Shown: piece by piece, positions 3,274-41,965 of the stretch
Position numbering within the stretch: position 1 is the stretch's first letter
How the letters are laid out: the number at the start of each line of letters is the position of its first letter
Assembly (NCBI GenBank): GCA_040002925.1
Contig: JBDUDM010000001.1
Coordinates: forward strand, 1,794 to 65,793
From: Spartobacteria bacterium
Lineage (GTDB): Bacteria > Verrucomicrobiota > Verrucomicrobiia > Chthoniobacterales > UBA10450
Reading direction: 5' to 3'
DNA: 64,000 nt
Translations under genes and position numbers: made by a program
The notes under the pieces: generated by a model
Database searches by the model: none
The model's input: the letters and a program-made list of their open reading frames with translations, nothing else
Told to the model about the DNA's origin: nothing

Positions 3274-3847
3274 CGCCGAGAAGCTGCGCGCCGATCTCGG
3301 AGAAGTGACAATCGGTCGCGAGATCGTCGTCCTGGACGAAACCACTTCGACTAACGACGAGATTTTCAAAATAGCGACGCCGGATACGCGCGAAGGCATC
3401 GTCGTCATTGCCGAACATCAAACCGCCGGCCGCGGCCAGCGCGGAAAATCCTGGGAATCTGCGGCGCGCAAAGGACTTTGGTTCTCGATCCTCCTTCGTC
3501 CGAAGATCGACATGAAGAATGCGGCGCGGCTGACCGAGTGGGCCGCAAACATTGTCGCAACGACAATCGGAGAGGCCGAGGTGAAACCGCCTAACGACGT
3601 TTACATCAGCGGACGAAAAGTCGCCGGTGTGCTGGTGGAAATGCGCGCGCAGCCGAACGGTCCACACCTCGGTATTCTCGGCATCGGCGTGAACGTGAAT
3701 CAAACCGCGGAAGATTTCTCGGACGCGGTGAAGGAACGCGCGGCGTCGCTCGCGATGTTGCGCGGCCGTCCGCAAGATCGACATCTACTCGCGGTCGCCT
3801 TGCTCCGAAATCTCGATCGGACCTACGCCGAGCTTTTCCATTTGTAG
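3260..3847 (+). CDS. birA: Biotin--[acetyl-CoA-carboxylase] ligase, catalytic core only (no HTH)
   Basis: 195 aa with the EHQTAGRGQRGKSWES biotin-protein-ligase signature and KWPNDV-like PNDVYISGRKVAGVL. Overlaps the nadC end by 14 nt. Its TAG stop lies inside the terminal TGTAGG of the downstream repeat element. Confidence 0.75.
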   Translation: MSELSAEKLRADLGEVTIGREIVVLDETTSTNDEIFKIATPDTREGIVVIAEHQTAGRGQRGKSWESAARKGLWFSILLRPKIDMKNAARLTEWAANIVATTIGEAEVKPPNDVYISGRKVAGVLVEMRAQPNGPHLGILGIGVNVNQTAEDFSDAVKERAASLAMLRGRPQDRHLLAVALLRNLDRTYAELFHL

Positions 3848-3900
3848 GGCGTCTGTGCCAGACGCCATCCTAAAAGTGCCGTCTATAGAGACGGCCTACA
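3843..3900. repeat. TGTAGG...CCTACA double-hairpin palindromic element, copy E1
   Basis: The termini TTGTAGG / CCTACAA pair with each other. Inner hairpins are GGCGTCTG-tgc-CAGACGCC and GCCGTCT-atag-AGACGGC. The element exactly fills the gap between the convergent birA and trpD genes. Confidence 0.75.
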
Positions 3901-27618: not shown

Positions 27619-27678
27619 AGTGGCGCAACCGTCCCGGTTGCGATCTTTCCCGAACGCAAGCCAGAGGCTCGCGCCACT
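27619..27678. other. Structured inverted repeat in a convergent gap; possible bidirectional terminator or element remnant
   Basis: Outer stem AGTGGCGC (27619-26) / GCGCCACT (27671-78). Inner hairpin GCAACCG-tcc-CGGTTGC. No clean T run. Confidence 0.35.
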
Positions 27679-30600
27679 AATGAAAGTCGTGCGACTCGCT
27701 GCCGACGAGTTGTTCGTGCGCGAGAGGCCGGATATCGCGCGTCTTAATCAACACGACGTTTTCAGAATTCTGCACATCGCCTTCGATTAGCAAAAATGAT
27801 TCTTCGGTAATCATCAGCCGAAACCGCTCGAATACGTCAGGATCGACAATCGCATTCGCGACCCCGGTCTCATCTTCCAGGCTGATAAAGACAAAACCTT
27901 TCGCCGTGCCGGGACGCTGACGACAAATGACATTGCCGGCGATTTGCACAGACGCGCCGGGCTGCGCCTGCGCGAGATCGATCGCTCGCCAAACATTCGG
28001 CAAACGTTCGCGTAACAACTTCATTGGATGCGGTCCGATCGTCAGGTTCATCGTTTCGTAATCCGCCTGCACCCGCTCGGAGATGTTCATGCGCTTCAAC
28101 GGAGATGAAGATGTCGATCTTGCGAGGAGATCGTCGTGCATCGCTTCTTCCACGCGCCACATGGCGGCGCGGCGATGATCGGTGAAGCAGTTGAGCGCAC
28201 CGAGTTCGGCAAGCGCTCGCAGTTCTTCCTTCGAAACGGCGACGCGCCGTTTGAAATCATCGAGCGAATCGAATTGTCGATCTTGCCGTTGCCGCACGAG
28301 TTCATCCGCATGTTCGTGGCGAAGTCCGTTTACCACACAAAATCCCAGTCGCACCGTTTCATCGGAAACAACCGCACAGTTCCATGTCGATCTTTGCACA
28401 CAGACCGGTTGCGTTTTCACGCCGTGGCGGCTGGCGTCTTTCACGATGGTCGCCGGCGTATAAAAACCCATCGGCTGATTGTTGAGCAGGCTGGCGTAAA
28501 ACTCGGACGCGCGATGCACTTTCAAATACGCGCTGCCGTAAGCGAGGATGGCAAAACTGATCGCGTGCGATTCGGGAAATCCGTAAAGCGCGAACGAGGT
28601 GATCGATTGCAGGATTTTGTCGATCACGGCCGGCGCTACGTTTTTGCGCTGCATGGCCGCGCGCAGTTTTACACTCACCTTGTTCATGCGGACTTCGGAT
28701 CGATGAAAGCTGAGCGCGCGCCGCAATTCTTCCGCTTCATCGCCGGAGAAATCCGCCATCACCATCGCAATCTTTAACATCTGTTCCTGAAATAGCGGAA
28801 CACCGAGCGTGCGGCCGAGAATCGGTTTCAATCGCGGATCGAAATACGTCACCGGTTCGCGGCCGGCGCGCCGCGCGAGATAAGGATGCACCATGTCGCC
28901 CTGGATCGGCCCGGGGCGAATGATCGCGACTTCGATGACGACATCGTAAAAACATTTCGGTTTCATCCGCGGCAGCGTGGCCATTTGTGCGCGGCTCTCG
29001 ATTTGAAAAACGCCGATGGTGTCGGCCTTCTGCATGATCTCGAAAGTGGCCGCGTCGTCTTTCGGAATGTGAGCAAGATCGAGAGGTCGCCCGCGTTCGC
29101 GGCAAAGCTCGAGCGCGTCCTGCATCACCGACATCATGCCCAGGCCTAACAAATCCACTTTGACGATGCCGAGATCTTCGCAATCGTCCTTGTCCCATTG
29201 CGCGACGACGCGACCGGGCATCGACGCATTTTCGAGCGGCACGAAGGAGCTGAGTTTGTCTTGGCAAATAATCATGCCGCCGGAGTGCTGGCCGAGATGG
29301 CGCGGCAATCCGTACATCGCCTGATAAAGATCGATGAACGCCGGCATGCGCGGGTGTTCCTTTGGCAAACCGGCCTGCTCGATTTGCGATTGCAGGTCGA
29401 GCGTGTGCGGAAAATCTCCGCTCGCAAACAAGTGCGAGAACCGATCAAGAATGCTCGGCGAGAAATTCAGCGCTTTGCCGATCTCGCGCGCGGCGCTGCG
29501 GCCACGATACGTGATGACGTTCGCGGTCATGGCCGCGCCGTGTTTGCCGTAGCGCCGATAAATTTCCTGGATCACGCTTTCGCGACGATCGCCGCTCGGA
29601 AGATCGAGATCGATATCGGGCCAGCCTTTGCGGCTCTCGCTCAGGAAACGCTCGAAGACGAGATGATTGCTGACCGGATCGACCGGGGTGATGCCGAGGC
29701 AATAACAGACCGCGCTATTGGCCGCGCTGCCGCGACCCTGGACCATGACATCGTGTTCGCGGCAAAAGTTAACGATATCCCAGACGATCAAAAAATATCC
29801 CGGGAATCCGAGTTTGCTGATGAGCGCGAGTTCTTCCTCGAGCTGACGTTTCACCGCGGCGCTGACCGCGGTGTAACGTTGTTGCGCGCCGAACCAGACG
29901 ATGGTGCGGAGAAAAGAATCCATGCTGTGACCGCTCGGCACGGGGAAGGATGGAAATTCGTAGCCTATGTTTTCGAGCGAAAAAGTAAGGCGCTCGGCCA
30001 GGCGCGAAGTGTTCTCGATCGCTTCGGGCAAATCGCGAAAGAGCTCTCGCATTTCGCGGTCGCTCTTCAAATGACGCTCGGCATTTTGCGTGAGCAATTT
30101 GCCGGCGGCATCGAGATGGGTGTGCTCGCGGATGCAGGTGAAAACATCAGCGACCTGGCGACCGGACGGTTTGGCGTATTGCACGCCATTGGTCGCTAAG
30201 ATCGACAATCGATAATGCGCGGCAAGATCGACAAGTGGCCGGTTAATGCGTTCTTTGCCGCGGAGAAAGTGCCGCTGGATTTCAACGAACACATTTTCGC
30301 AGCCGAACGCATCGATGAGAAACTGCGCGCGATTTTCTGAACTGTAGGCGACGCTGTTAGCGTCGCGAGGGAAGCAAACTGCTTCCCCTACAAGCGCGAC
30401 CAAGCCATCCGCGAACTCCGCGAGCTCGCTCCATTGCACCGAGCATTTTCCTTTTTCGCTGCGCAGATGCGCTTGCGTGAGCAGCCCGCATAAATTTTTG
30501 TAGCCGGCGCGATTCTCGACCAGCACCGGAAGAATCGCGCCGTCTTCCATGGTCAACTCGGCGCCAGTGATGGGCCGAACATTTTGTTCGCGCGCGGCCA

Positions 30601-30754
30601 TCGCGAAACGTTGCGAGCCGTAAACACCGTCGCGATCCAGCAATGCCATTGCCGGCATCTCGAGCTCGGCGGCGGTCTCGGCTAGTTGTTCAGGAAAGGA
30701 ACCACCGCGCAGAAAACTGAATGCGCTGCCGGCATGCAATTCAACGTAAGACAT
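27677..30754 (-). CDS. dnaE2: Error-prone DNA polymerase (Pol III alpha-like, ImuC)
   Basis: About 1025 aa from MSYVELHAGSAFSFLRGGS (PHP domain). Pol III alpha core and an OB fold are at the C-terminus. It lies directly downstream of the imuB 3' fragment. Confidence 0.9.
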   Translation of the reverse strand: MSYVELHAGSAFSFLRGGSFPEQLAETAAELEMPAMALLDRDGVYGSQRFAMAAREQNVRPITGAELTMEDGAILPVLVENRAGYKNLCGLLTQAHLRSEKGKCSVQWSELAEFADGLVALVGEAVCFPRDANSVAYSSENRAQFLIDAFGCENVFVEIQRHFLRGKERINRPLVDLAAHYRLSILATNGVQYAKPSGRQVADVFTCIREHTHLDAAGKLLTQNAERHLKSDREMRELFRDLPEAIENTSRLAERLTFSLENIGYEFPSFPVPSGHSMDSFLRTIVWFGAQQRYTAVSAAVKRQLEEELALISKLGFPGYFLIVWDIVNFCREHDVMVQGRGSAANSAVCYCLGITPVDPVSNHLVFERFLSESRKGWPDIDLDLPSGDRRESVIQEIYRRYGKHGAAMTANVITYRGRSAAREIGKALNFSPSILDRFSHLFASGDFPHTLDLQSQIEQAGLPKEHPRMPAFIDLYQAMYGLPRHLGQHSGGMIICQDKLSSFVPLENASMPGRVVAQWDKDDCEDLGIVKVDLLGLGMMSVMQDALELCRERGRPLDLAHIPKDDAATFEIMQKADTIGVFQIESRAQMATLPRMKPKCFYDVVIEVAIIRPGPIQGDMVHPYLARRAGREPVTYFDPRLKPILGRTLGVPLFQEQMLKIAMVMADFSGDEAEELRRALSFHRSEVRMNKVSVKLRAAMQRKNVAPAVIDKILQSITSFALYGFPESHAISFAILAYGSAYLKVHRASEFYASLLNNQPMGFYTPATIVKDASRHGVKTQPVCVQRSTWNCAVVSDETVRLGFCVVNGLRHEHADELVRQRQDRQFDSLDDFKRRVAVSKEELRALAELGALNCFTDHRRAAMWRVEEAMHDDLLARSTSSSPLKRMNISERVQADYETMNLTIGPHPMKLLRERLPNVWRAIDLAQAQPGASVQIAGNVICRQRPGTAKGFVFISLEDETGVANAIVDPDVFERFRLMITEESFLLIEGDVQNSENVVLIKTRDIRPLAHEQLVGSESHDFH
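30343..30392. repeat. TGTAGG...CCTACA double-hairpin element, copy E3, inside the dnaE2 CDS and in frame
   Basis: TGTAGG-CGACGC-tgtta-GCGTCG-cga-GGGAAGC-aaac-TGCTTCCC-CTACA. It is translated on the minus strand as VGEAVCFPRDANSVAY. It is closely similar to the reverse complement of copy E4. Confidence 0.7.
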
Positions 30755-30773: not shown

Positions 30774-31733
30774 TCAGTCGTAAACACCGTCGATTTGCCA
30801 GCCGGACTCATCGGCATGACAACGGACGAGCTCGCCCGGATTCAATTCCAAATCCCATTCCGCCCGCGACCAAGTTTGCACATCCCACCAATTTCCCGAT
30901 GCCAGATACGGTCCGTTTTTTTTCGAAATGGCTCCGCTCACTTTTGCGCTGCGGAGATGGAGCGGTTTATTTTGTTCTAGCAAAACGGAGGCGTTGGTTG
31001 CTGGCCGGAAGCGACGTAAGGCAGCACCAGATTTCGGTTCGGCCGGAGTAGATGGCGGACTAAAATTCCACGCGAACGGTTCAAGATGAAAAGCATCGGG
31101 ACGATGCGTTTCTTCTACAACGGGCGTGCCGACTCGATTGCTTCCGAGTAAGGCGACGAGGCGCGCGAGCGTTTCGGAAAGTTGGGCGGGATTTCGCAGT
31201 GCCGTTTCGAAAAGGCCGAACTGTTGCGGCGCCGGTTTGGTTGGCTTCGCTTCCAACGCGATGGCGATAATGGGATGTTCCGATTGGAAATTCTCCAAGT
31301 GCGTGTGCAGCATGCGAAAGAGAAGATCGACATCGTTCGTCGGCTGCGGAATGGAGAAGCAGCGTTCGTATTGCTCTCGATTATCGAAGGTGATGCGAAG
31401 GGTGAGTTCCTGCGCGACGAGGTAAATCGCCTGTAAACGAATCGCGATTTGTTCCAAGAATCTTCGTAGCATGAAGAGCAACGGATCGATCGTTTCGACT
31501 TCGTGTTCGAACTCAAAGCTCTCGGCAAATGATTCCGGCGGCTCGATCAGTTTGAGAAGCCGCATTGATTTGCCCTGAGCGCGTTCCCAAAGCCGGACCG
31601 CTTCCGGGCCGAGCCTCGCGCTAATGTCTTTACGATCTAGCGCAGCGAAATCGCCGACGGTATGCACGCCCCATTTGTGCAAGATCGACATGATGCGCCC
31701 GACTTCCCCCGCTGTCTTCCTGGGGTCAGGCAT
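30774..31733 (-). CDS. imuB: ImuB (Y-family polymerase-like) C-terminal two-thirds; one half of a split gene
   Basis: 319 aa starting within the HhH/little-finger region (ILHKWGVHTVGDFAALD...). It has a beta-clamp-type motif QQFGLF. The ATG overlaps the stop of the upstream repeat-protein gene (TAATG). The N-terminal third is encoded at 41350-41910 on the other strand. Confidence 0.75.
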   Translation of the reverse strand: MPDPRKTAGEVGRIMSILHKWGVHTVGDFAALDRKDISARLGPEAVRLWERAQGKSMRLLKLIEPPESFAESFEFEHEVETIDPLLFMLRRFLEQIAIRLQAIYLVAQELTLRITFDNREQYERCFSIPQPTNDVDLLFRMLHTHLENFQSEHPIIAIALEAKPTKPAPQQFGLFETALRNPAQLSETLARLVALLGSNRVGTPVVEETHRPDAFHLEPFAWNFSPPSTPAEPKSGAALRRFRPATNASVLLEQNKPLHLRSAKVSGAISKKNGPYLASGNWWDVQTWSRAEWDLELNPGELVRCHADESGWQIDGVYD

Positions 31734-33676
31734 TACCGTTGTTGCGAGAGCAAACGTGTTTTTATTTCGGCGGGCAGCGTAGCGTTATTGATCCACGAGG
31801 CGGCGCTGCCGGGATTGACCTTGAGCCAATTCGTTAGGATGGATTCGACCTGGCTGTTGCGCATTCCTTCATTCCCGATCGACGACGCCCATTGCGCGGC
31901 CGCTTCCGGATCGGACACCGCGATGCGACGAGTGAAAACCGCGATACCGGCGTCGCGCGTAGTCCCTTGGTGCAAACTGCCTAACCAAGTCGCGGCCGCC
32001 GATGGATCGCTTTCGGCCCAGCGGTTCACCACATTTTCCACCGCGCGTTGCCGACCGACACCTTCCGGAAAGGACGTGGCCCACTTGCTCGCTTCGCGCG
32101 GATCTTGCGACGCCCATTGCCACCCGATGGTGCCGGCAGCATTCGCTTGCGCGTCTGACGAAGAAATTTTCGAAATAAGGCGCGCGGCTTCGCGGACATT
32201 ATTTTCTGCGACGCTCGCGACAATTCCGGGAAGCATGGCGTCGCGCGCGGCGGTGTCGGAAAGATTTTCCGCCCAGGTGAGCGCGGCTGTTGGATCAGAC
32301 TGAGCCCAACGTCGCGCAACGTGATCCAGTAAATTGCCGCCCGCATTCGAGCTGCGCTGGCGCAATGCGAAATCGGCCGCGGCCCGTGGATCCGCATCGC
32401 TCCATTGCGCCACGATGTTGCTCAGGGCGTTTTGGCGGGCCTGCCCCGGCGGGAGTTTTTGCGCCCAAGCCGCGGCGCTTTGCACATCGCTCCCAGCCAA
32501 TTGCGTAGCGATCGCGGTGATCGCTTCTTCCTGCGTTTTTCCGGGAGGCAAAGTGGAAATATAATCTGCCGCCGCAGCCGGCTCAGATTGAACCCATGCG
32601 ACGAGGACACCACGCACCGCCTGGGATTGCCCTTCACCTATCGGTAATTGTTGCGCCCAACTCAGTGCTGCGCGCACATCGCTCTGGGCCCATTGCCGGG
32701 CAATATTACCTAACGATTGCTCTCGCACGGTGCCGCCCGGAAGCGTCACCACCAGCGCCGCCGCTTTCGCGGGGTCCTTACCCGCCCAGCTCGTTAGGAT
32801 ATTTTGCAACGTGTTATTGCGGCCGCGTCCAGGCGGCAGGTTGTTCGCCCAGGCGAATGCCGCTTCCGGATCTTGATTTGCCCATGTCGATCCAACGGCC
32901 TGGCAAGCGGCGTCGTGGTTCGCATCCGGCGGCAGGCGCGTGACCATGGCGGCAGCGGCGGCAGGATCATTCGCTGCCCAATTATTGAAGATGGGCCAAT
33001 AGAGATTCTGGCGCGCACGACTCGCGGGCAGAGCCTGCACCAACGTGAGCGCGCGTTGCGGATCATTTTCGGCAATCGCGGTAACGACGGTTTGCATCGC
33101 CTGATCGTGCGCCGGTCCCGGCGGAAGTTGCTGCACCCAGGCGGCGGCAGCGTTGGCATCGCGACTGGCCCAACCTTTCGCCGCGCTCGTCATCGCCGAG
33201 GTGCGAGCTGGGCCCGGCGGTTGTTTTTCCGCATAAGCGATCGCGGCCGTGGCATCGAACTCGGCCCAACGGTTCACGATCGCCGCAACGAGGACATTTT
33301 TTTCCTGGGAACCCGGCAAACTTTCGGCGAACGCGACGACGTCGTTCACATTTTTTTCGTCCAGCGCGTCGACCAGTTTAGTGAATTCGGTTTTAGCGCG
33401 GCGAGTGTTGCGCTGACCGAGCGCCGCTTTGATCGAGCCGATAATTTTTTCGGGCGGCGCGTGCGGATCGACCGAAGCATCGATTATCGATCTTGCGCGT
33501 TCTGGTTCTGGCGCAGCAACAATCTTTGCCGGAACAGGCGGGGTGGATGGCAGCATCGCGACCGGTTTAGGTGGCGCGACGGCCGGTTTCGAAAATGGAT
33601 TTGGGTAATGTCCGACAAGGAGCCCAGCGCAAAACAGCAGAACCGCGCTGCCGATCGTAATGGTGGCGCGATTCAT
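31733..33676 (-). CDS. Membrane-anchored alpha-solenoid repeat protein (about 13 repeats of about 38 aa)
   Basis: 647 aa with an N-terminal TM segment. The repeat unit is of the form DPxAAAxWxxxLPPGxxRxxAxxxIxxxWA. AGGAG lies 5 nt before the ATG and a LexA box 29-42 nt upstream. Confidence 0.7.
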   Translation of the reverse strand: MNRATITIGSAVLLFCAGLLVGHYPNPFSKPAVAPPKPVAMLPSTPPVPAKIVAAPEPERARSIIDASVDPHAPPEKIIGSIKAALGQRNTRRAKTEFTKLVDALDEKNVNDVVAFAESLPGSQEKNVLVAAIVNRWAEFDATAAIAYAEKQPPGPARTSAMTSAAKGWASRDANAAAAWVQQLPPGPAHDQAMQTVVTAIAENDPQRALTLVQALPASRARQNLYWPIFNNWAANDPAAAAAMVTRLPPDANHDAACQAVGSTWANQDPEAAFAWANNLPPGRGRNNTLQNILTSWAGKDPAKAAALVVTLPGGTVREQSLGNIARQWAQSDVRAALSWAQQLPIGEGQSQAVRGVLVAWVQSEPAAAADYISTLPPGKTQEEAITAIATQLAGSDVQSAAAWAQKLPPGQARQNALSNIVAQWSDADPRAAADFALRQRSSNAGGNLLDHVARRWAQSDPTAALTWAENLSDTAARDAMLPGIVASVAENNVREAARLISKISSSDAQANAAGTIGWQWASQDPREASKWATSFPEGVGRQRAVENVVNRWAESDPSAAATWLGSLHQGTTRDAGIAVFTRRIAVSDPEAAAQWASSIGNEGMRNSQVESILTNWLKVNPGSAASWINNATLPAEIKTRLLSQQR

Positions 33677-33704
33677 AATCTCCTCTTACGGCAAATCGTT
33701 GATA

Positions 33705-33718
33705 TGTTCAAATGAACT
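33705..33718 (-). promoter_or_regulatory. Putative LexA box upstream of the repeat-protein / imuB-3' / dnaE2 unit
   Basis: TGTTCAAATGAACT on the plus strand (AGTTCATTTGAACA in the gene orientation). Matches TGTTC-N4-GAACA at 13 of 14 positions and is nearly identical to the box in front of lexA. Confidence 0.6.
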
Positions 33719-35703
33719 TATAAGATTGTGACCGGACATTTTGGTAATGCCTGCATAAATGCGCGGCCATACGGCTTCGTCACAATGCGATTATCCAGGA
33801 TCACCGCGATCCCATGATCGCTCTTTGTCCGAATCAAGCGTCCGATTCCCTGACGCAATTTCAGGATCGCTTCCGGCAGCGAGTATTCCGTGAAAGGATC
33901 GCCGCCGCGTTCCTGCACTAATTCGAGCTTCGCTTCTATCAGCGGATGATCGGGCACCGCGAAGGGCAAACGGGTGATGATGACGTTTGAAAGTGCTTCG
34001 CCCGGCACATCCACGCCCATCCAAAAACTGTCGGTGCCAAAAAGGACGCTGCGCGGAGTCGCCTTAAATTGTTCAAGTAATTTGCCGCGCGGCATCCCTG
34101 CACCCTGGACGAACAGGTTCAGATTCTTGTCGATGAAACTCTGCTGCAATCGCGCCACCATTTGCTGCATCCCGCGATAACTGGTGAAAAGAATAAAGGC
34201 GCGCCCTTCCGTTTCCTCGACGAAATGCGCAATCCATTTCGCCAGCGCTTCTTCGTAACCGGCCTCGCGCGGGTCGGGCATTTTTTGGACGATGAAAAGT
34301 TTCATCTGGTTTTGAAAATCGAACGGACTCCCCAGTTGCAACGGTTCCGCGTCATTCGCGCCGATGCGATTCCGGAAATACGCCATGTCGGCGCGGCCGA
34401 CCGAAAGGGTGGCGCTCGTCATCACGCATGAGCAGGAATCGCGAAACAACATGCGACGAAGCACTGGCGCGATGTCGATCGGCGATGCGTTCAGCGAAAG
34501 AAACTGACCGGCTTTCCCGGTGCGTTCGACCCAGTAGACGTGCGGCTCCTGCGCGCTTTGCTCGAGGAATACTTTAATGCCATCGCGCGCATCGCGAATT
34601 CTTCCGCCGATGTCCTGCAATTCCGCCCGCAGAAATTCATCCTCGGTTTTACGGACGACCTCGGCCACGCGTGCTTGCAGCGCAATCAATCGCCCGGTGA
34701 TGGTGTCCGGCACGAAGTCCGGAGCGCGGACGCGGAACTCGCGGCCTTTGGTGAAGTTGCAATGCGTCTCCAGTTTCTCGAAAAAGATGTCGACTTCATC
34801 GGCAAGGGATGCGGCCAGCGTCACGCCAGCGGCTTCGCGCGTGACCGTGAAAAGGCCTTTGCGGCTCCGCGCGTTGTAGAGCCGTTGGATTGTCGATCTT
34901 AGCCCGTATTGCGAAACGCCGAGGCCGACCTGACGGGAAGCCACCTGCTCGATCGTGTGCGCCTCGTCGAAGATGATGAAGTCGTTAGGGAACAAAAACC
35001 CGCTCTCGCGTGCGGCCTGCTCCTCTGGATCACCGAACAACTTGAAGAGCAAAGTGTGATTGATGACGAGGACATCGGCGACGAGCAAACGTTTGCGCGC
35101 CTGCTGATAAAAACACCCGTGATGTTGTCCGCACGTTTTCGTGGTGCAGACGTGCGCCTCGCTACAGACCTGCGTCCAAACTTTCGAGTCCGGTTCGAAA
35201 TTCAAATCGCTCAGCGACCCGTCCTGCGTCTTCGCGGCCCATTCCGCCAGTTGCTGCAATTCCTCCTTCTCCGACGTGGTGAAGAGATCGTTCGCCTGTT
35301 GCAGCGCGCGCTCGAGCCGGCGCGGACAAAGATAGTTTTGCCGACCCTTCACTAAGGCCGCCTCGAACTCGACCGGCAATGTCTTCTTTAAAATCGGGAT
35401 GTCTTTATAGAGAAGCTGCTCTTGCAGATTGATCGTGTGCGTCGAAATGATCGCTTTCTTTTTCTGCTCGAGCGCGAACAGAATCGACGGCACCAGATAG
35501 GCGATCGATTTGCCTACGCCCGTCCCGGCCTCGACGACAAGATGTCGATCTTCCTCCAGCGTGCGCGCCACCGCCACCGCCATCTCCTGTTGCTCGGGAC
35601 GAAACTCGAAATTCTTCGCCTTCGACAGCAAACCGGTTTCAGAAAAGATCGCGCGGACACGCTCGACCAGCTCAGTTCCGATAGAGTCCTTGAGCGCAAT
35701 CAT
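33718..35703 (-). CDS. dinG: DinG/Rad3-family ATP-dependent DNA helicase
   Basis: 661 aa; Walker A AGTGVGKS, DEAH box FDEAH, Fe-S Cys cluster (CPRR...C...C..C), and C-terminal helicase motifs. Confidence 0.85.
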   Translation of the reverse strand: MIALKDSIGTELVERVRAIFSETGLLSKAKNFEFRPEQQEMAVAVARTLEEDRHLVVEAGTGVGKSIAYLVPSILFALEQKKKAIISTHTINLQEQLLYKDIPILKKTLPVEFEAALVKGRQNYLCPRRLERALQQANDLFTTSEKEELQQLAEWAAKTQDGSLSDLNFEPDSKVWTQVCSEAHVCTTKTCGQHHGCFYQQARKRLLVADVLVINHTLLFKLFGDPEEQAARESGFLFPNDFIIFDEAHTIEQVASRQVGLGVSQYGLRSTIQRLYNARSRKGLFTVTREAAGVTLAASLADEVDIFFEKLETHCNFTKGREFRVRAPDFVPDTITGRLIALQARVAEVVRKTEDEFLRAELQDIGGRIRDARDGIKVFLEQSAQEPHVYWVERTGKAGQFLSLNASPIDIAPVLRRMLFRDSCSCVMTSATLSVGRADMAYFRNRIGANDAEPLQLGSPFDFQNQMKLFIVQKMPDPREAGYEEALAKWIAHFVEETEGRAFILFTSYRGMQQMVARLQQSFIDKNLNLFVQGAGMPRGKLLEQFKATPRSVLFGTDSFWMGVDVPGEALSNVIITRLPFAVPDHPLIEAKLELVQERGGDPFTEYSLPEAILKLRQGIGRLIRTKSDHGIAVILDNRIVTKPYGRAFMQALPKCPVTIL

Positions 35704-35778
35704 TCAATCACTCGCGCAGCGTGCGAAATCACGCCGTTACGTTAAACTGATCCTGCCGAAGCCTCATCCCTAATTTCC

Positions 35779-36918
35779 GTGAAACTGCTCGATCGCTACG
35801 TCACCCGCAATTTTCTGCAGGCCTACATTTACTGCATCGCGGGGTTCATCTCCATCTGGCTCGTCTTCGATGTGAGCGACAACATCTCCACCTTCATCGA
35901 TCAGCACCTCGGCGTGCGCCGCGTCGCGCTTTACTATTTAACGCAGGTTCCGCAAATCGTGGTCATTCTCCTGCCGGTTTCGTTGCTGCTCGCGTTGCTA
36001 TTTTGTCTCGGACGGATGTCACGCGCGAACGAAGTCGTGTCGATGTTGACCGCCGGAGTCAGCGTACCGCGCGTCTTGCTTCCACTCATCATCATCGGCG
36101 GATTGACTGCGATCGGGACGCTGGCGCTTAACTACGAACTCGCGCCGCATGCCGATCTCGCGAAAAAAAATGTGTTATCGGCCGAGCGCGTGCGACGCGC
36201 CTCGCAAGTCGAGGGACAAATTTTTCGTAATCGAAGCGACGCCCGCACTTGGTTCATCCAAAGTTTTCGCATCCATCAAAATGCTTTCAATAACGTGCAG
36301 GTGCTGCAACAGGACGCGCAGGATAACATCGTCATGAGTTACATGGCGAAACGCGCAGTGTTCCGGCCCGAAACAAAAGCGTGGGAACTCGAATCGGCCA
36401 AGATCGTCCACTACGACAACGCGGGAAATATTCTCCGCGAAGAGTTTCAGCCGACGATGTCGATCTTGCACTGGAGCGAAACGCCTTACCGCTTGAGCAG
36501 CGCGAATGTTCGCGCCGAGCAACTCGGCGTCCCGGAGCTGCGTGAGTATTTGCATTTTAATTCCGACTTCCCTCCTACTCTGCTCGCGCCATTCAAAACC
36601 CATCTGCAATATCGACTCGCCCTGCCTTGGACATGTCTCGTCGTCGTTTTCATCGCGGCGCCGCTCGGCATCGGCTTTTCGCGCCGCGGCGTCCTCTCCA
36701 GCGTCGCCGCATCCATCGTTCTCGTGTTCTCCATGAATTTTCTCACCCACTTGTTTCTCGCGCTTGGCGAGGGTTATCGCATTCCGGCGTGGGCCGCCGC
36801 GTGGACGCCGAACGCAATCTTCGCCGTCATCGGCTTGTATCTGCTTTATCTCCGGGCGACCAATCGCGAAGGCTTCGGCTTTCGCCTGCTGCCGACGCGT
36901 CGTATAGTTGCGCGATGA
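35779..36918 (+). CDS. LptF/LptG-family LPS export permease
   Basis: 379 aa with a GTG start. MKLLDRYVTRNFLQAYIYCIAGFISIW is typical of the YjgP/YjgQ family. It has 6 TM segments and a periplasmic beta-jellyroll loop. Confidence 0.8.
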   Translation: MKLLDRYVTRNFLQAYIYCIAGFISIWLVFDVSDNISTFIDQHLGVRRVALYYLTQVPQIVVILLPVSLLLALLFCLGRMSRANEVVSMLTAGVSVPRVLLPLIIIGGLTAIGTLALNYELAPHADLAKKNVLSAERVRRASQVEGQIFRNRSDARTWFIQSFRIHQNAFNNVQVLQQDAQDNIVMSYMAKRAVFRPETKAWELESAKIVHYDNAGNILREEFQPTMSILHWSETPYRLSSANVRAEQLGVPELREYLHFNSDFPPTLLAPFKTHLQYRLALPWTCLVVVFIAAPLGIGFSRRGVLSSVAASIVLVFSMNFLTHLFLALGEGYRIPAWAAAWTPNAIFAVIGLYLLYLRATNREGFGFRLLPTRRIVAR

Positions 36919-37424
36919 GTCTTCTGGCTAACGAATGGGCGATCAAACATCGCTCGGATGTCTGCGCGGCCACGCAACGGCCTTTTGCGGAGGGAGAATT
37001 TTTCTACACCCTGCTCTTTCACGAAGCCGAAGGTTTTCGCAGGGAAGATTTGAGCGAAGCAGCCTGGCAAAGCCGTAACGAAAACATTCGGCCGTTTTCA
37101 TTTTGGAAAAGCCGCTACGAGCCCACGCCGCCCGCTCCGCCTGAAACTTTGGCCAAAGAAAATGCCGAAGAATTATTTCGTCGCCTGGTGGCATCCGAAA
37201 ACGCGCCCGCGAATGCATGCTACGTCCTGGCCGCCATGCTTGAGCGCAAACGCGTGCTGAAACAAATTAAGACCGAGAAGACCGATGACGGCCGCGTTTT
37301 GGTTTACGAGCATCGGGAAAACGGCGACGTCTTCATCGTGCGCGATCCCGGCCTGCGCCTGGATGAATTGCAGAACGTGCAGAGCGAGGTCGCAAATCTG
37401 CTCCAAGCCGGAATCCCCCGCTAA
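36915..37424 (+). CDS. Hypothetical protein
   Basis: 169 aa. The ATG overlaps the upstream stop (ATGA). No family recognised. The ORF-track start at 36627 is an over-extension. Confidence 0.55.
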   Translation: MSLLANEWAIKHRSDVCAATQRPFAEGEFFYTLLFHEAEGFRREDLSEAAWQSRNENIRPFSFWKSRYEPTPPAPPETLAKENAEELFRRLVASENAPANACYVLAAMLERKRVLKQIKTEKTDDGRVLVYEHRENGDVFIVRDPGLRLDELQNVQSEVANLLQAGIPR

Positions 37425-37431
37425 GATCGAC

Positions 37432-38517
37432 ATGGACAAGATCGACAATGGAACCGCGGGGAAGCGAGCGACATGGACGGGGAAGCGCGAGAGGGTTGAT
37501 GAGGCGGGAGCCGAATCAATCAATCACTCGTTGCCTTGGTTTTCGAACGGCTTTCCGCTCTATCTCGCGCCGATGGCAGGAGTGTCGGACAAAATCTTTC
37601 GGCAAATCTGCAAACGCTACGGCGCCGATGTTCTAACGACTGAATTCGTTTCCTCCGAAGGAATTTTTCGACGCAACGATCGCACGAGCGAATACCTCGA
37701 CTTCGATGAAATCGAGCGGCCCCTCGGCGTGCAACTTTTCGGCGGCAATGCCGAACACATGGCCGAAGCCGCGCGCCAGGTCGTCGACTGGGTCGTGCCG
37801 GACTTTGTCGATCTTAACTTCGGTTGTCCGGTCAACAAAGTTGTCGCGAAGAACGGCGGCTCCGCGTTGCTGAAAGATTGTCCGACACTCGCGAGCGTCG
37901 CCGGCGCAGTTGTTCGCGCGGTCGCGCCGTTGCCGGTCACCGCGAAAATTCGCATTGGTTGGGATGCCGATTCCATCAACGCCGTCCGGGTCGCACATAT
38001 CCTTGTGGATCAAGGCATCGCCGCCATCACCGTCCACGGCCGTACTCGCGCGCAAGGTTATTCCGGCGAAGCGGATTGGAATGTCATCGGCGAAGTGGCC
38101 GCAGCGGTTTCGATTCCAGTGATCGGAAACGGCGATCTTTTCACCCCGATGGATGTCGCGAAGCGTCGGCGCGAAACCGGAATCGCTGCGGCGATGATTG
38201 GCCGCGCCGCGATGAGCGCGCCGTGGATCTTCCAACAGATCAAAGAATTTCTAGCCACAAATACGATTGTCGATCCACCGAACGCGCAGCAAAAGTGGGA
38301 CGTGATCTTGGAACATTGCCGCTTAGCGGTCGACGAATGGGGCGAGGAAGAGCCGGCCATTCGCTCGATGCGTGCGCGATTGATGGCTTACTCGAAAGGA
38401 TTTCCGGCGAGCAAATTATTGCGCGAGAAATTCCAGCACGTCTCCACCTTGCTTGAGCTTGAAGAAATCGCGCATGCGCATTTGCAGATGGCGTTCGAAC
38501 CCGCACTGGCCACTTGA
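37432..38517 (+). CDS. dusB: tRNA-dihydrouridine synthase
   Basis: LYLAPMAGVSDKIFRQICKRYGADVLTTEFVSSEG, DLNFGCPVNKV, TVHGRTR. Two copies of the 12-mer sit at the start codon. Confidence 0.85.
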   Translation: MDKIDNGTAGKRATWTGKRERVDEAGAESINHSLPWFSNGFPLYLAPMAGVSDKIFRQICKRYGADVLTTEFVSSEGIFRRNDRTSEYLDFDEIERPLGVQLFGGNAEHMAEAARQVVDWVVPDFVDLNFGCPVNKVVAKNGGSALLKDCPTLASVAGAVVRAVAPLPVTAKIRIGWDADSINAVRVAHILVDQGIAAITVHGRTRAQGYSGEADWNVIGEVAAAVSIPVIGNGDLFTPMDVAKRRRETGIAAAMIGRAAMSAPWIFQQIKEFLATNTIVDPPNAQQKWDVILEHCRLAVDEWGEEEPAIRSMRARLMAYSKGFPASKLLREKFQHVSTLLELEEIAHAHLQMAFEPALAT

Positions 38518-38520
38518 TCG

Positions 38521-38889
38521 ATGGAAACCGTAGCCACGCCTAACTACAAGATCGGTAACGAGCGTCTAGTTAAAGTGACCGAGGCCGCCGCCGGAAAATT
38601 AATTTCGCTGCTGACAAAACAGGGGCGGCCGCAAGGCGCGCTCCGGGTCGCGGTCATCGGCGGCGGTTGCTCCGGTTTGCAATACAAAATGGACCTCGTC
38701 GACGGCCCCGCGAATCGCGACATCATGGTCCCGACCGCGAACGTCCGTGTCGTGGTCGATCCAAAAAGCGCGCTCTTCGTTAGCGGCTCCGTCCTCGATT
38801 ACAGCGACGACCTGCAAAAAGGCGGATTCAAAGTGACGAATCCGAACGCAGTCGCCCATTGCTCGTGTGGCGAAAGCTTCGCGGCATGA
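38521..38889 (+). CDS. erpA: Iron-sulfur cluster insertion protein (HesB/IscA/ErpA family)
   Basis: 122 aa; [20 protein letters not shown] and C-terminal CSCGESF. Confidence 0.9.
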
Positions 38890-38914
38890 CCGACTTTCTG
38901 GGCAAATAGTCGGC

Positions 38915-39518
38915 ATGAAGATCGCGTTGAAGCCTGAGAATGTCGCGCGGCTGGTGTTCTTCATCCGCGGTGAGAAGGTTATGCTCGATTCCGACCTCGC
39001 CATGCTTTATGGCGTTGAAGCGCGTAGCCTAAACCAAGCGGTCGCAAGGAATCACAAGCGCTTTCCGGCTGATTTCATGTTTCAACTTTCCGAGAAAGAA
39101 TACGAAGACATCCGGTCACAATCTGTGACCACATCCGGAGGGAAAAAGCTTAAGTCATCACAAACTGTGATCTCAAAACCACCAACTTCCGGCGATGCAT
39201 CGCGTTTGAGATCACAAATTGTGACCTCAAAGGGCGGCCGCGGAGGTCGTCGCTATCGCCCATACGCCTTCACCGAACAAGGCGTGGCCATGCTATCGAG
39301 CGTTCTGCGCAGCTCGCGCGCGGTGAGGTAAACATCGCGATCATGCGGACTTTTGTGCAACTCCGGCGATTAATGGACGGCAACCAGGAGCTTGCTCGAA
39401 AAATCAATGCACTTGAAAATAAATACGACGAACAATTCTCTGTCGTCTTTGCCGCAATAAAACAGCTCATCACGCCCCCACCGCGGACAAAAAAAAAGAT
39501 CGGATTCCATTCCGAGTG
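38915..39518 (+). pseudogene. ORF6N-domain (KilA-N-like) protein gene, frameshifted near 39325
   Basis: N-terminal part: [42 protein letters not shown]...[21 protein letters not shown], then a stop at 39329-39331. The conserved continuation [16 protein letters not shown]...LENKYDEQFSVVFAAIKQL is in another frame and ends at 39518. Confidence 0.7.
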
Positions 39519-39980
39519 ACCGATTACTTCACGGTTCTGGAACAGCAGAGAAAACCCTGGCTCGATCCACAAGAGCTGAAGGAAAAATATCACGGGCTCG
39601 CGCGTCGCAGCCAGCCGGACCAGAATGTCAACGAAGCCTACCGGGTCCTCGTCGATCCGAAGCTGCGGCTGCAACATCTTTTGACTTTGGAAGGCGCGCC
39701 GCCGTCGGCTTCATCCACGGAAATCCCGGAGGAGTTGGCCGACCTCTTCATGGCGATCGCGCCGACGTTGCACAAGATCGACATGGTGGATGCAACGCAC
39801 GTCGACGAGCTGATTAATCAAGTTAGAGATTTGAATGAAGAAACGCTGGCGGATGTGCGCGCAATCGATGCGAATTGGAACAAGAGGTTGAGCGAGATCG
39901 AGAAACTATATCGCCGCATTAGTTATTTAAGTCGCTGGTTGGAGTTGCTCGAAGAACGCCGTTTTCAGTTGTCGATCTAA
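39516..39980 (+). CDS. HscB-like J-domain co-chaperone with a degenerate J-domain (QPD instead of HPD)
   Basis: 154 aa. DYFTVLEQ...LKEKYHGLARRSQPDQNVNEAYRVLVDPKLRLQHLLTLEG parallels E. coli HscB, but lacks about 12-14 aa after the HPD position. The C-terminus is helical. Confidence 0.5.
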   Translation: MTDYFTVLEQQRKPWLDPQELKEKYHGLARRSQPDQNVNEAYRVLVDPKLRLQHLLTLEGAPPSASSTEIPEELADLFMAIAPTLHKIDMVDATHVDELINQVRDLNEETLADVRAIDANWNKRLSEIEKLYRRISYLSRWLELLEERRFQLSI

Positions 39981-39982
39981 GA

Positions 39983-39996
39983 TGTTCATTTGAACT
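39983..39996 (+). promoter_or_regulatory. Putative LexA box upstream of lexA
   Basis: TGTTCATTTGAACT lies 35 nt before the lexA ATG. Matches TGTTC-N4-GAACA at 13 of 14 positions. Confidence 0.7.
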
Positions 39997-40030
39997 TGCG
40001 CTGGTTTCGTTAGCCTGCGATGCTGATGTC

Positions 40031-40657
40031 ATGCTCACGCATCGGCAGAAAAGCATTCTCGATTTCATCCAAAGCGAGCAGCGTGAGAAAGGACTCACCC
40101 CGAGCACGCGCGAAATCCAAAAACATTTTCGCTTCGCTAGCCAGACGTCGGTGATGCAATACCTCGCCACCCTGGAGCGAAAAGGTTTCCTTAACCGCCA
40201 CGCCCGCAAAGCGCGCGCGCTCATTACCCCGGTGCAGAAGGTGCGTATTTCCGATATCCCGATTTACGGGCAAATCCCGGCCGGCATGTCAGCGCTGAAC
40301 GAGCAAAGCATCGAAGGCCATATTTCACTCGACAGTCGCTCCGTTAACGCATCGAAAAGCGCCGGGACATTTGCGCTGCGAGTGCGGGGTGATTCGATGA
40401 TCGATGCACACATTCTCGACGGGGACATCGTCATTCTGGAAGACCGCAAAGATGTGCAGAACGGGGACATCGTGGCGGCATTGATCGATGGGGAGACAAC
40501 GCTGAAGCGATTTGTGACGGAACATGGCCGGCCTTATTTGAAAGCAGAGAACCCGCAGTATCCCAATTTGATTCCCGCGCGCGAGTTGCTCATTCAGGGG
40601 GTGATGGTATCGCTCGTGCGCAAACATATTGGTCGACAACGCAAGAAACGAGTTTAA
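40031..40657 (+). CDS. lexA: LexA repressor
   Basis: 208 aa; N-terminal wHTH (REIQKHFRFASQTSVMQYLATLERKGFL), S24 peptidase Ser (VRGDSMIDA) and Lys (TLKRF). Confidence 0.9.
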   Translation: MLTHRQKSILDFIQSEQREKGLTPSTREIQKHFRFASQTSVMQYLATLERKGFLNRHARKARALITPVQKVRISDIPIYGQIPAGMSALNEQSIEGHISLDSRSVNASKSAGTFALRVRGDSMIDAHILDGDIVILEDRKDVQNGDIVAALIDGETTLKRFVTEHGRPYLKAENPQYPNLIPARELLIQGVMVSLVRKHIGRQRKKRV

Positions 40658-40671
40658 TGTTCACTTGAACA
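40658..40671 (+). promoter_or_regulatory. Putative LexA box upstream of imuA
   Basis: The perfect palindrome TGTTCACTTGAACA lies immediately after the lexA stop and 29 nt before the imuA GTG. Confidence 0.75.
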
Positions 40672-40699
40672 TAAACTCAGAACATGCCAATGTCTCCGC

Positions 40700-41350
40700 G
40701 TGGCTGCGCGGAATCCGCTTGTCGATCTTAGGAACCTGCTCGCCGAAAGATTTCCGGCCGCGCTCACGCCGCGCCCCACACATTTATCGACAGGGCTGGC
40801 TTTTCTCGACGCCGCCATCGCGGGCGGGTTATGCAAAGGTGCGATTACCGAGATAATCAGCCCGCAGCTCAGCGCCGGCAGCGCGACTCTTATTGCTGCT
40901 CTGCTGCAAGCAGCGCAACGCGATCGTTACTTTGTCGCGCTCATCGATGGGAGCGATTCGTTCGACCCGCAGCCGCTCGGAAACAATTGTTTGCGTCATT
41001 TGCTCTGGATGCGTTGCGATACAGCGCGCACGGCCATGCAAGCGGCTGATCTGCTCTTGCGCGATGGCAATTTTCCATTGGTGATTGTCGATCTTGTCCT
41101 CAATCCGGCGGAGCAACTTCGAAAAATTCCACAGGCGAATTGGTACCGATTGCAACGTTTGGTCGAGCCGACTTCCAGCGCATGTCTGGTCTTGAGTCGG
41201 CAAAGCATGGTGGCGAGCGCGCAACTTAAACTCGTTCTCGAAAACGCGTGGACGCTTTCGAGCTTTGAGGCCGATGATGCCTTGGCACGGCTGCGCGTTC
41301 GCATTCAACGTTCGCACGCAAGATCGACATGGACGGAAGCGGCCAGCTGA
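40700..41350 (+). CDS. imuA: ImuA (RecA/SulA-like component of the SOS mutagenesis cassette)
   Basis: 216 aa with a GTG start; STGLAFLDAAIAGGLCKGAITEI...LWMRC...AADLLLRDGNFPLVIVDL. It sits between lexA and imuB. Confidence 0.7.
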   Translation: MAARNPLVDLRNLLAERFPAALTPRPTHLSTGLAFLDAAIAGGLCKGAITEIISPQLSAGSATLIAALLQAAQRDRYFVALIDGSDSFDPQPLGNNCLRHLLWMRCDTARTAMQAADLLLRDGNFPLVIVDLVLNPAEQLRKIPQANWYRLQRLVEPTSSACLVLSRQSMVASAQLKLVLENAWTLSSFEADDALARLRVRIQRSHARSTWTEAAS

Positions 41351-41910
41351 TGTTCGCCACCATTTATCTGCCGAACTTTTATCTGCAGGCCGCATTGCGC
41401 CATCAATCGGAATCGCAGGACAAACCCGCGGCGTTGATCGAGGAACAGGAAAAGAAACCGGTCATCATCCAATTGAACGAAGCCGCGGAAGCGGTCGGCG
41501 TGCGCAAAGGAATGACGCCGAGCCAGGCGTTAGCGCGATATTTGCACGTCGTGATTAAAGCGCGGGCGGCGATGAACGAGCAATCGATGCAGGAGATGCT
41601 GCTGCAATCCGCCTTTACGCTTAGTCCGTATGTGGAAGCGACCGCGCCCGGAGTCGCCACTGTCCGGTTTACTGCGTGGCATCGGCATCTTGCCGATGAT
41701 TCATGCGCTGGAAGCGCATGCCACAAAGTTCTGCGCGTGATCGAGCAATTAAGCGAATGCGAGATCAAAGCGCAGGCCGCAATCGCGCGGACGCCGGACA
41801 CGAGTTTTCTCGCGGCCCATTTGGCGCGACCGGTGTTGGAGGTGAACGACGCGAAAGATTTTCTCGGCCCGTTGCCGATCGAAACGCTCGCGCTTACGCC
41901 ATCTCTGTAG
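41350..41910 (+). CDS. imuB: ImuB N-terminal third (Y-family palm/fingers); other half of the split gene
   Basis: MFATIYLPNFYLQAALR... The start overlaps the imuA stop (TGATG). It ends at ...PLPIETLALTPSL, with a TAG supplied by the terminal CTGTAGG of repeat copy E4. Confidence 0.75.
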   Translation: MFATIYLPNFYLQAALRHQSESQDKPAALIEEQEKKPVIIQLNEAAEAVGVRKGMTPSQALARYLHVVIKARAAMNEQSMQEMLLQSAFTLSPYVEATAPGVATVRFTAWHRHLADDSCAGSACHKVLRVIEQLSECEIKAQAAIARTPDTSFLAAHLARPVLEVNDAKDFLGPLPIETLALTPSL

Positions 41911-41965
41911 GGGAAGCTGCCAGCTTCCCGTAAATTCGATGGGACGCTAACAGGGTCCCCTACAG
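41905..41965. repeat. TGTAGG...CCTACA double-hairpin element, copy E4
   Basis: CTGTAGG-GGAAGCTG-c-CAGCTTCC-cgtaaattcgat-GGGAC-gctaacagg-GTCCC-CTACAG. Its reverse complement aligns with copy E3 (30343-30392). Confidence 0.75.

Follow-up and report, generated by a model that had tools for sequence, protein, structure and literature searches.

ImuB is encoded as two halves on opposite strands

We analysed a 64,000-nucleotide (nt) stretch of DNA from a Spartobacteria bacterium (contig JBDUDM010000001.1 of assembly GCA_040002925.1, positions 1,794 to 65,793; referred to as the window herein), which carries lexA, imuA, imuB and dnaE2, with imuB present as two separate open reading frames (ORFs). 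The layout runs from genes for a TPR protein and an aquaporin through imuB(N)-imuA-lexA and, further along, Fe-S, Dus and LptF/G genes to helicase-p647-imuB(C)-dnaE2 and 6PGD. The imuB N-half (41350..41910, + strand) encodes 186 residues covering the dead palm, the fingers and the first thumb helix of this Y-family protein, and the C-half (30774..31733, - strand) encodes 319 residues covering most of the thumb, the little finger, the clamp motif and the ImuB-C region. The original prediction, made from the letters of the sequence, that imuB exists as two intact ORFs on opposite strands about 10 kb apart was borne out, as both ORFs were found at these coordinates. Both in the window and throughout the clade described below, ImuB is two polypeptides encoded on opposite strands.

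The N-half matched the Pfam family IMS over profile positions 1-146 of 148 (E 1.6e-10) and ends 8 residues past a conserved FL.PLPIETL motif. Its N-terminus reads MFATIYLPNFYLQA where active Y-family enzymes have D.D..F; it contains no aspartates there, as is also the case in full-length ImuB relatives. The C-half matched Pfam IMS_C (E 1.4e-8), while Pol IV models were matched from approximately model position 188-225 onward, and the thumb remainder includes the stretch ILHKWGVHTVG. The clamp motif QQFGLF lies at C-half residues 170-175 and is followed by a helix at residues 182-196 (ETLARL.ALLG); both are invariant or nearly so in our alignment A3. This helix sits where RecA-NT, the ImuA'-binding element of mycobacterial ImuB, is expected, and judging from position only it would be RecA-NT (PMC11791113). 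The ORF at 41350-41910 had been proposed to be the N-terminal part of ImuB, translationally coupled to imuA behind lexA, and the one at 30774-31733 the remainder, with QQFGLF and followed by dnaE2. The IMS match and the TGATG overlap between the imuA stop and the N-half start agree with the former assignment, and the IMS_C match and the profile score of dnaE2 with the latter.

When the C-half was searched exhaustively against cluster representatives, full-length ImuB relatives of 480-502 residues were recovered that are 45-51% identical to it. C-half residues 13-319 align to approximately residues 178-492 of full-length ImuB, with the C-terminal region aligning end to end, and the first ~12 residues form a non-homologous leader that has no counterpart in the full-length proteins. 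In a joint alignment the N-half end, ...FLGPLPIETLALTPSL, faces FLAGLPVATLTPSAAL of full-length ImuB and the C-half sequence IMSILHKWGVHTVG faces AAILQKWGIHTLG; in alignment A1 the N-half end, ...LPIETLALTPSL, stands opposite LPVATLTPSAAL, and IMSILHKWGV of the C-half opposite AAILQKWGI. Judged by these alignments, the two ORFs are abutting halves of one ImuB and not paralogues. The expectation that their combined length fits a normal ImuB therefore holds, given the size of the full-length relatives and the abutting halves, and the suggested alignment check of the junction, once run, showed halves that neither overlap nor belong to different paralogues, the leader of the C-half being the only extra sequence.

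When a profile was built from 30 full-length relatives, it matched Pol IV structures and placed the break in the IPGVG hairpin of the first helix-hairpin-helix, at approximately residue 183-187 of E. coli Pol IV chain 4irc_F (alignment numbering). With what we take to be the domain limits of Pol IV, this is about 20 residues into the thumb. A search of the PDB with the single sequence of either half gave no match. The AlphaFold2 (AF2) model of the C-half had a predicted local distance difference test score (pLDDT) of 71-89 over the remaining thumb helices and the little finger, with the ImuB-C region modelled poorly, and a Foldseek search with the C-half matched Y-family polymerases.

The break is shared by a clade of soil Verrucomicrobia

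For each half, the homologue set comprised the best 120 database relatives. All of the N-half homologues are half-length (175-228 residues, 59-80% identical) with an intact ORF, and all of those of the C-half are likewise half-length (312-391 residues, 59-76% identical); where named, the organisms are Chthoniobacterales or Candidatus Udaeobacter. Every N-half in this set stops 2-10 residues past a conserved FLAPLPIETLA, in a tail that is variable, and every C-half begins with a variable hydrophilic leader of 5-57 residues that leads into ..IL.ILHKWGIHTLG. Since all homologues of each half break at the same residue position, one inherited break explains the data best. Clustering at 50% identity reduced the clade to a single representative of 353 residues, for which the next matches were full-length ImuB proteins of at most 51% identity.

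A scan of species-representative genomes yielded 31 loci from metagenome-assembled genomes (MAGs) labelled Udaeobacter, Chthoniobacterales or Verrucomicrobiota, two of them with other phylum labels. The order lexA-imuA-imuB(N) was found in 31/31 of these loci, and the C-half followed in 0/31. Over all loci examined, lexA-imuA-imuB(N) was present in 34, the N-half ORF was intact in 34/34 and the C-half was adjacent in 0/34. The split is thus ancient, fixed and kept by a group of soil Verrucomicrobia consisting of Udaeobacter and its relatives.

Two loci, L006 (DASXIT010000043.1) and L011 (DATIOX010000070.1), carry a Udaeobacter-type lexA-imuA-imuB(N) under MAGs named Candidatus Acidoferrum and Dormibacterota, and these are probably mis-binned contigs. 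We also considered independent splits elsewhere. The candidates, five proteins of 312-346 residues (P0296, P0300, P0317, P0327 and P0354), look like truncated gene calls and were set aside: four of the five keep residues upstream of the break, and P0317 begins abruptly within the conserved WG motif.

Gene order points to a single old inversion as the likely origin

The comparison of synteny with related genomes that had been proposed was carried out, and we found the same divergent layout in loci L001, L017 and L032 and, without p647, in L047. These are independent assemblies from other species, whose half-proteins are 58-77% identical to those of the window. Across genomes, the distance between the oppositely oriented halves is 7-10 kb or more, and in the window and these four assemblies only one orientation was seen. 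In a neighbour-joining tree of the helicase and LptF/G, loci with the window layout occur on both main branches. L003 has lost the lexA-imuA-imuB(N) block from the site, and L046 retains lexA at the site without imuA-imuB(N); both arrangements look derived. Since the layout is present on both main branches and these two exceptions appear to be derived, the window layout is probably ancestral to the split clade.

In the closest full-length relatives the genes are colinear, with lexA-imuA-imuB in L043 and imuA-imuB-dnaE2 in L040-L045, and this is the order, lexA-imuA-imuB-dnaE2, that re-inversion of the segment in the window had been predicted to restore. A single old inversion is accordingly the simplest and most likely origin of the split. 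Its breakpoints would have fallen within imuB at one end and, at the other, downstream of either the YoaA/DinG-like helicase gene or p647. No inverted repeats were found at 31733 and 41905, in agreement with the original report of no long inverted repeat at the breakpoints, and a scan of large ORFs in the segment revealed no recombinase. The proposal of a 10.2-kb inversion therefore stands in part: given the recurring layout and the colinear relatives, the inversion is plausible, old and fixed, and it is not the recent event, misassembly or switch that had also been entertained.

A palindromic element has inserted at the junction in this genome

The N-half ends within E4, a 61-nt double-hairpin palindromic element (41905..41965) that is a genome-specific insertion. 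As predicted, E4 supplies the stop codon of the N-half, with the TAG lying within the element. L001 and L017 lack E4 at this site: there the N-half carries its own TAA a few codons past ETLA and meets the 3' end of the aquaporin gene in convergent orientation, with an overlap of a few nt in the gene calls for L001. A 7-nt microhomology, GGGGAAG, had been noted at the two breakpoints. We found that it is part of E4 and hence missing from the L001 and L017 sites, so it is unrelated to the break.

E4 belongs to an element family of the form TGTAGG-N30-55-CCTACA, with two internal hairpins of variable sequence. A search with the exact ends of E4 gave few copies, and the looser TGTAGG-N30-55-CCTACA pattern gave three in the 64 kb of the window (3843-3900, 30343-30392 and, for E4, 41906-41964), with 0.02 expected by chance. 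None was found in 48 related loci totalling 695 kb, so the family is specific to this lineage. The copy at 30343-30392 lies in frame inside dnaE2 (- strand), to which it adds 15 residues (EAVCFPRDANSVAYS, residues 144-158). This insert has no counterpart in the 89%-identical dnaE2 of L001 and leaves the coding frame unbroken. An element inside dnaE2 recalls the Rickettsia palindromic elements.

Predicted LexA operators precede both operons

Three predicted LexA operators were identified in the window: TGTTCATTTGAACT at 39983..39996, 41 nt upstream of lexA; TGTTCACTTGAACA at 40658..40671, 35 nt upstream of imuA; and TGTTCAAATGAACT at 33705..33718, 35 nt upstream of the p647-imuB(C)-dnaE2 operon. 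With up to one mismatch, TGTTC-N4-GAACA occurs at 5 sites in the window, and 3/5 are those 35-41 nt before lexA, imuA and p647. We then counted TGTTC-N4-GAAC[A/T] in all loci that had been fetched with upstream sequence. A box was present ~40 nt upstream of lexA in 32/32 loci, ~34 nt upstream of imuA in 33/33 and before the first gene of the C-half operon in 8/8; in L003 and L047, which are without p647, it stands directly before imuB(C). Together the lexA, imuA and C-half-operon positions hold 73 of the 101 boxes in 758 kb.

The constant presence of the box before lexA is our reason for predicting it to be the LexA operator. A literature search for 'TGTTC-N4-GAACA' returned no match. LexA would then bind at all three boxes. 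Since the same predicted operator precedes both operons and lexA, DNA damage should induce all parts at once, and the two halves are probably induced together. The box before the C-half operon would also mean that, after the break, the dnaE2-proximal half came to lie once more behind a predicted damage-inducible promoter.

The operator regions of p647 and lexA (33706-33726 and 39975-39995) resemble each other over 21 nt at 86%, past the 14-nt box itself. They share the pattern ATCT-N5-GTTCATTTGAAC in the same orientation relative to p647 and lexA, a likeness that may stem from a shared promoter architecture or from duplication of a promoter.

Both halves are under purifying selection

Pairwise ratios of nonsynonymous to synonymous substitution rates (dN/dS), taken at dS ~0.9-1.2, were 0.15-0.19 for the imuB N-half and 0.14-0.16 for the C-half. 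The corresponding values were 0.20-0.22 for imuA, 0.15-0.20 for p647 and 0.04-0.06 for lexA. Both halves of imuB are under purifying selection. Identity between the N-half and the N-regions of full-length ImuB is 39%, the same as among those regions themselves, which indicates that the N-half has not been accelerated since the split. A dN/dS of ~0.8-1.0 for the helicase of L017 was set aside, as its translation contains an in-frame stop and points to a frame problem in the coordinates or the sequence.

Neighbouring genes

On the plus strand, lexA (40031..40657) has the Pfam domains LexA_DNA_bind and Peptidase_S24. It is followed by imuA (40700..41350), which encodes a RecA-like protein of 216 residues that matched Pfam RecA above the Pfam cutoff (E 8.6e-10). 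Against the NCBIfam model ImuA_translesion it reached E 3.6e-10 and 40 bits, under the curated 150-bit cutoff; its position and coupling fit ImuA.

On the minus strand, p647 (31733..33676; 647 residues) opens the C-half operon in the window. Its stop codon overlaps the start of the C-half as TAATG, as had been read from the sequence originally. The p647 protein gave no Pfam match above the cutoff, with a weak ELYS match below it, and no NCBIfam match. It is internally repetitive, as seen from several offset, lower-identity tblastn alignments to the L002 orthologue. The gene is present in L001, L017, L032, L046 and L048 and absent from L003 and L047, and with its predicted operator it is a candidate new SOS gene.

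The error-prone Pol III alpha paralogue dnaE2 (27677..30754, - strand) scored 1209.7 bits against the NCBIfam model NF004225 'error-prone DNA polymerase' (cutoff 939) and has the Pfam domains PHP, DNA_pol3_alpha, finger, HHH_6 and OB. The ORF is open to 30817, and as listed it contains 21 codons before a conserved MSYVELHAGS start; its alignment with the L001 orthologue begins at M22. The real start is therefore probably M22 at 30754, which would leave a 19-nt gap behind the imuB(C) stop and no overlap.

The gene for the YoaA/DinG-like DEAH helicase (33718-35703, - strand), which reached 588 bits against NF053712 and so fell short of the 680-bit cutoff, directly precedes the C-half operon in every locus. 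It has no operator of its own, and LptF/G is always divergent from it. Between the Fe-S assembly and DnaJ-like genes, in a stretch of low guanine-plus-cytosine content (0.52-0.55), there is an ORF with an ORF6N domain (38867-39331, + strand; E 8.6e-35). It contains a 20-nt inverted repeat at 39158-39224 and is without a counterpart at the same site in L001, L017 and L032, which suggests a short insertion confined to this genome.

Discussion

Our best explanation of these data, which we regard as likely, is that imuB was broken once in the ancestor of a large Chthoniobacterales/Udaeobacter clade and that its products now act in a four-protein mutasome. In this model ImuB-N, which comprises palm and fingers without catalytic acidic residues, would still be translated with ImuA from the lexA-imuA operon. 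ImuB-C, comprising the remainder of the thumb and the little finger together with the beta-clamp motif, the RecA-NT-like helix and the ImuB-C domain, would be made with DnaE2 from the second operon. After SOS induction the two would associate non-covalently to give a complex of ImuA, ImuB-N, ImuB-C and DnaE2, in which ImuB-C would supply the partner-binding modules and ImuB-N whatever the dead polymerase core does. We considered a split intein, but the N-half tails are 2-10 residues long, the C-half leaders are 5-57 residues and variable, and no intein or Hint domain was found; any reassembly would thus be non-covalent.

Mycobacterial ImuB is a catalytically dead hub whose clamp motif is needed for mutagenesis (PMC11791113; PMC6511836), and its C-terminal extension binds DnaE2 and ImuA (PMC6511836). 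The role of the inactive polymerase core is not known (PMC11791113). That this core of palm and fingers is a separable subunit with a function of its own, within a four-protein mutasome whose ImuB is rebuilt post-translationally from two LexA-controlled operons, is a reading to which we give even chances.

Several points weigh against this picture. Expression of the halves and their physical reassembly are predictions made from the sequences. All known partner-binding modules map to the C-half, so that the role of the N-half is deduced from conservation only. AF2 on the N-half alone gave a pLDDT of 46 from a shallow alignment, a value that has no bearing on independent folding. The closest full-length ImuB loci (L039-L045) have no flanking genes in common with the window, and we found no outgroup with an intact imuB that does, so both the order before the inversion and the inversion itself are what we infer. 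Finally, TGTTC-N4-GAACA, the pattern that the boxes match, is reportedly the verrucomicrobial LexA motif of Erill et al. 2016 (cited in PMC8565304), and the LexA assignment of the boxes is a prediction.

It is conceivable, if improbable, that both halves are functional but uncoupled, the N-half having taken up a different task, perhaps beside ImuA only, while ImuB-C and DnaE2 form a unit of their own. The halves do lie in separate operons, far apart in many genomes, and the N-half is always with imuA and the C-half always with dnaE2. All three units nevertheless carry the same predicted operator, and the N-half retains the ancestral level of sequence constraint. The ImuA-binding RecA-NT position is moreover on the C-half, encoded away from imuA, so assembly across operons would be needed anyway.

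We give slightly less weight still to the possibility that the N-half is a non-functional remnant and that the C-half does the whole job with ImuA and DnaE2, as in standalone ImuB-C systems. All described ImuB partner-binding modules being in the C-half (PMC11791113; PMC6511836) would fit such an arrangement, as would the standalone ImuB-C proteins of other mutasome variants (PMC6511836; PMC12926913). The selection data contradict a relic, however: the dN/dS of the N-half equals that of the C-half and imuA, and the N-half has diverged no faster than the N-regions of full-length ImuB. Its ORF is intact in all of the best 120 homologues and in 34/34 loci, and it keeps both the stop/start coupling to imuA and the conserved predicted operator.

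An event confined to this genome, be it a recent inversion, a misassembly or a reversible switch, would also put the halves on opposite strands and give the canonical order on re-inversion, but it is highly improbable. Four independent assemblies of other species share the arrangement at 58-77% amino acid identity, and their synonymous sites are nearly saturated. The segment is not flanked by inverted repeats, the scan of its large ORFs gave no recombinase, and the microhomology sits in an element found only in this genome.

The proposed four-protein mutasome shares with the canonical LexA-regulated imuA-imuB-dnaE2 cassette, as in Caulobacter and Pseudomonas, its lexA, its RecA-like putative imuA, its dead Y-family imuB with clamp motif and C-terminal region and its dnaE2, as well as a predicted LexA operator ahead of the genes and the translational coupling of imuA with the start of imuB. 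It differs in that ImuB is two polypeptides from opposite strands, and in that the dnaE2-proximal half stands behind its own predicted operator and is preceded in many genomes by a newly acquired gene, p647. In the mycobacterial 'split cassette' of imuA'-imuB and dnaE2 the break falls between genes, whereas here it falls inside imuB.

The systems of an inactive Y-family polymerase (iPolY), standalone ImuB-C and DnaE2, with or without RecA ('DnaE2X', Kyrpidia-type), resemble the present one in spreading the functions of ImuB over two proteins that work with DnaE2, and have been termed 'a split ImuB' (PMC12926913; PMC6511836). They are without ImuA, and the authors consider them possibly ancestral (PMC12926913; PMC6511836). 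They divide after a complete polymerase-like core, whereas here the cut lies inside the core, early in the thumb, and ImuA is present; as the halves derive from a full-length ImuB, the split described here is secondary. Naturally split enzymes, reassembled through fragment complementation or split inteins (split DnaE of cyanobacteria, for example), are alike in that a single ancestral protein comes from two genes lying far apart on opposite strands, but no intein is present here. In the literature searched, 'split ImuB' was used only for iPolY with standalone ImuB-C, and no paper paired ImuB with Udaeobacter. We regard the present arrangement, in which the polymerase core itself is cut, ImuA is kept and a second predicted operator has been gained, as a novel form of a known system.

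A published survey discarded Y-family fragments of <200 residues (PMC12926913, methods). Such a filter would miss the N-half, and the genomes could then be classed as having a truncated ImuB or none.

The Udaeobacter clade is among the most abundant soil bacterial groups. This clade separates the dead core of ImuB from the part that binds the clamp, ImuA and DnaE2, and both pieces are kept under selection across a clade with saturated or nearly saturated synonymous sites. Their retention is an argument for a function of the dead core that can be provided in trans, and the two genes are ready-made constructs for testing it. With the least-understood part of ImuB present as a separate, conserved gene, the finding should be of moderate to good interest to the translesion synthesis field. 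If our explanation is true, these genomes would be a natural separation-of-function experiment for a part of ImuB of unknown role, and the need to bring two halves together may add an assembly checkpoint to SOS mutagenesis.

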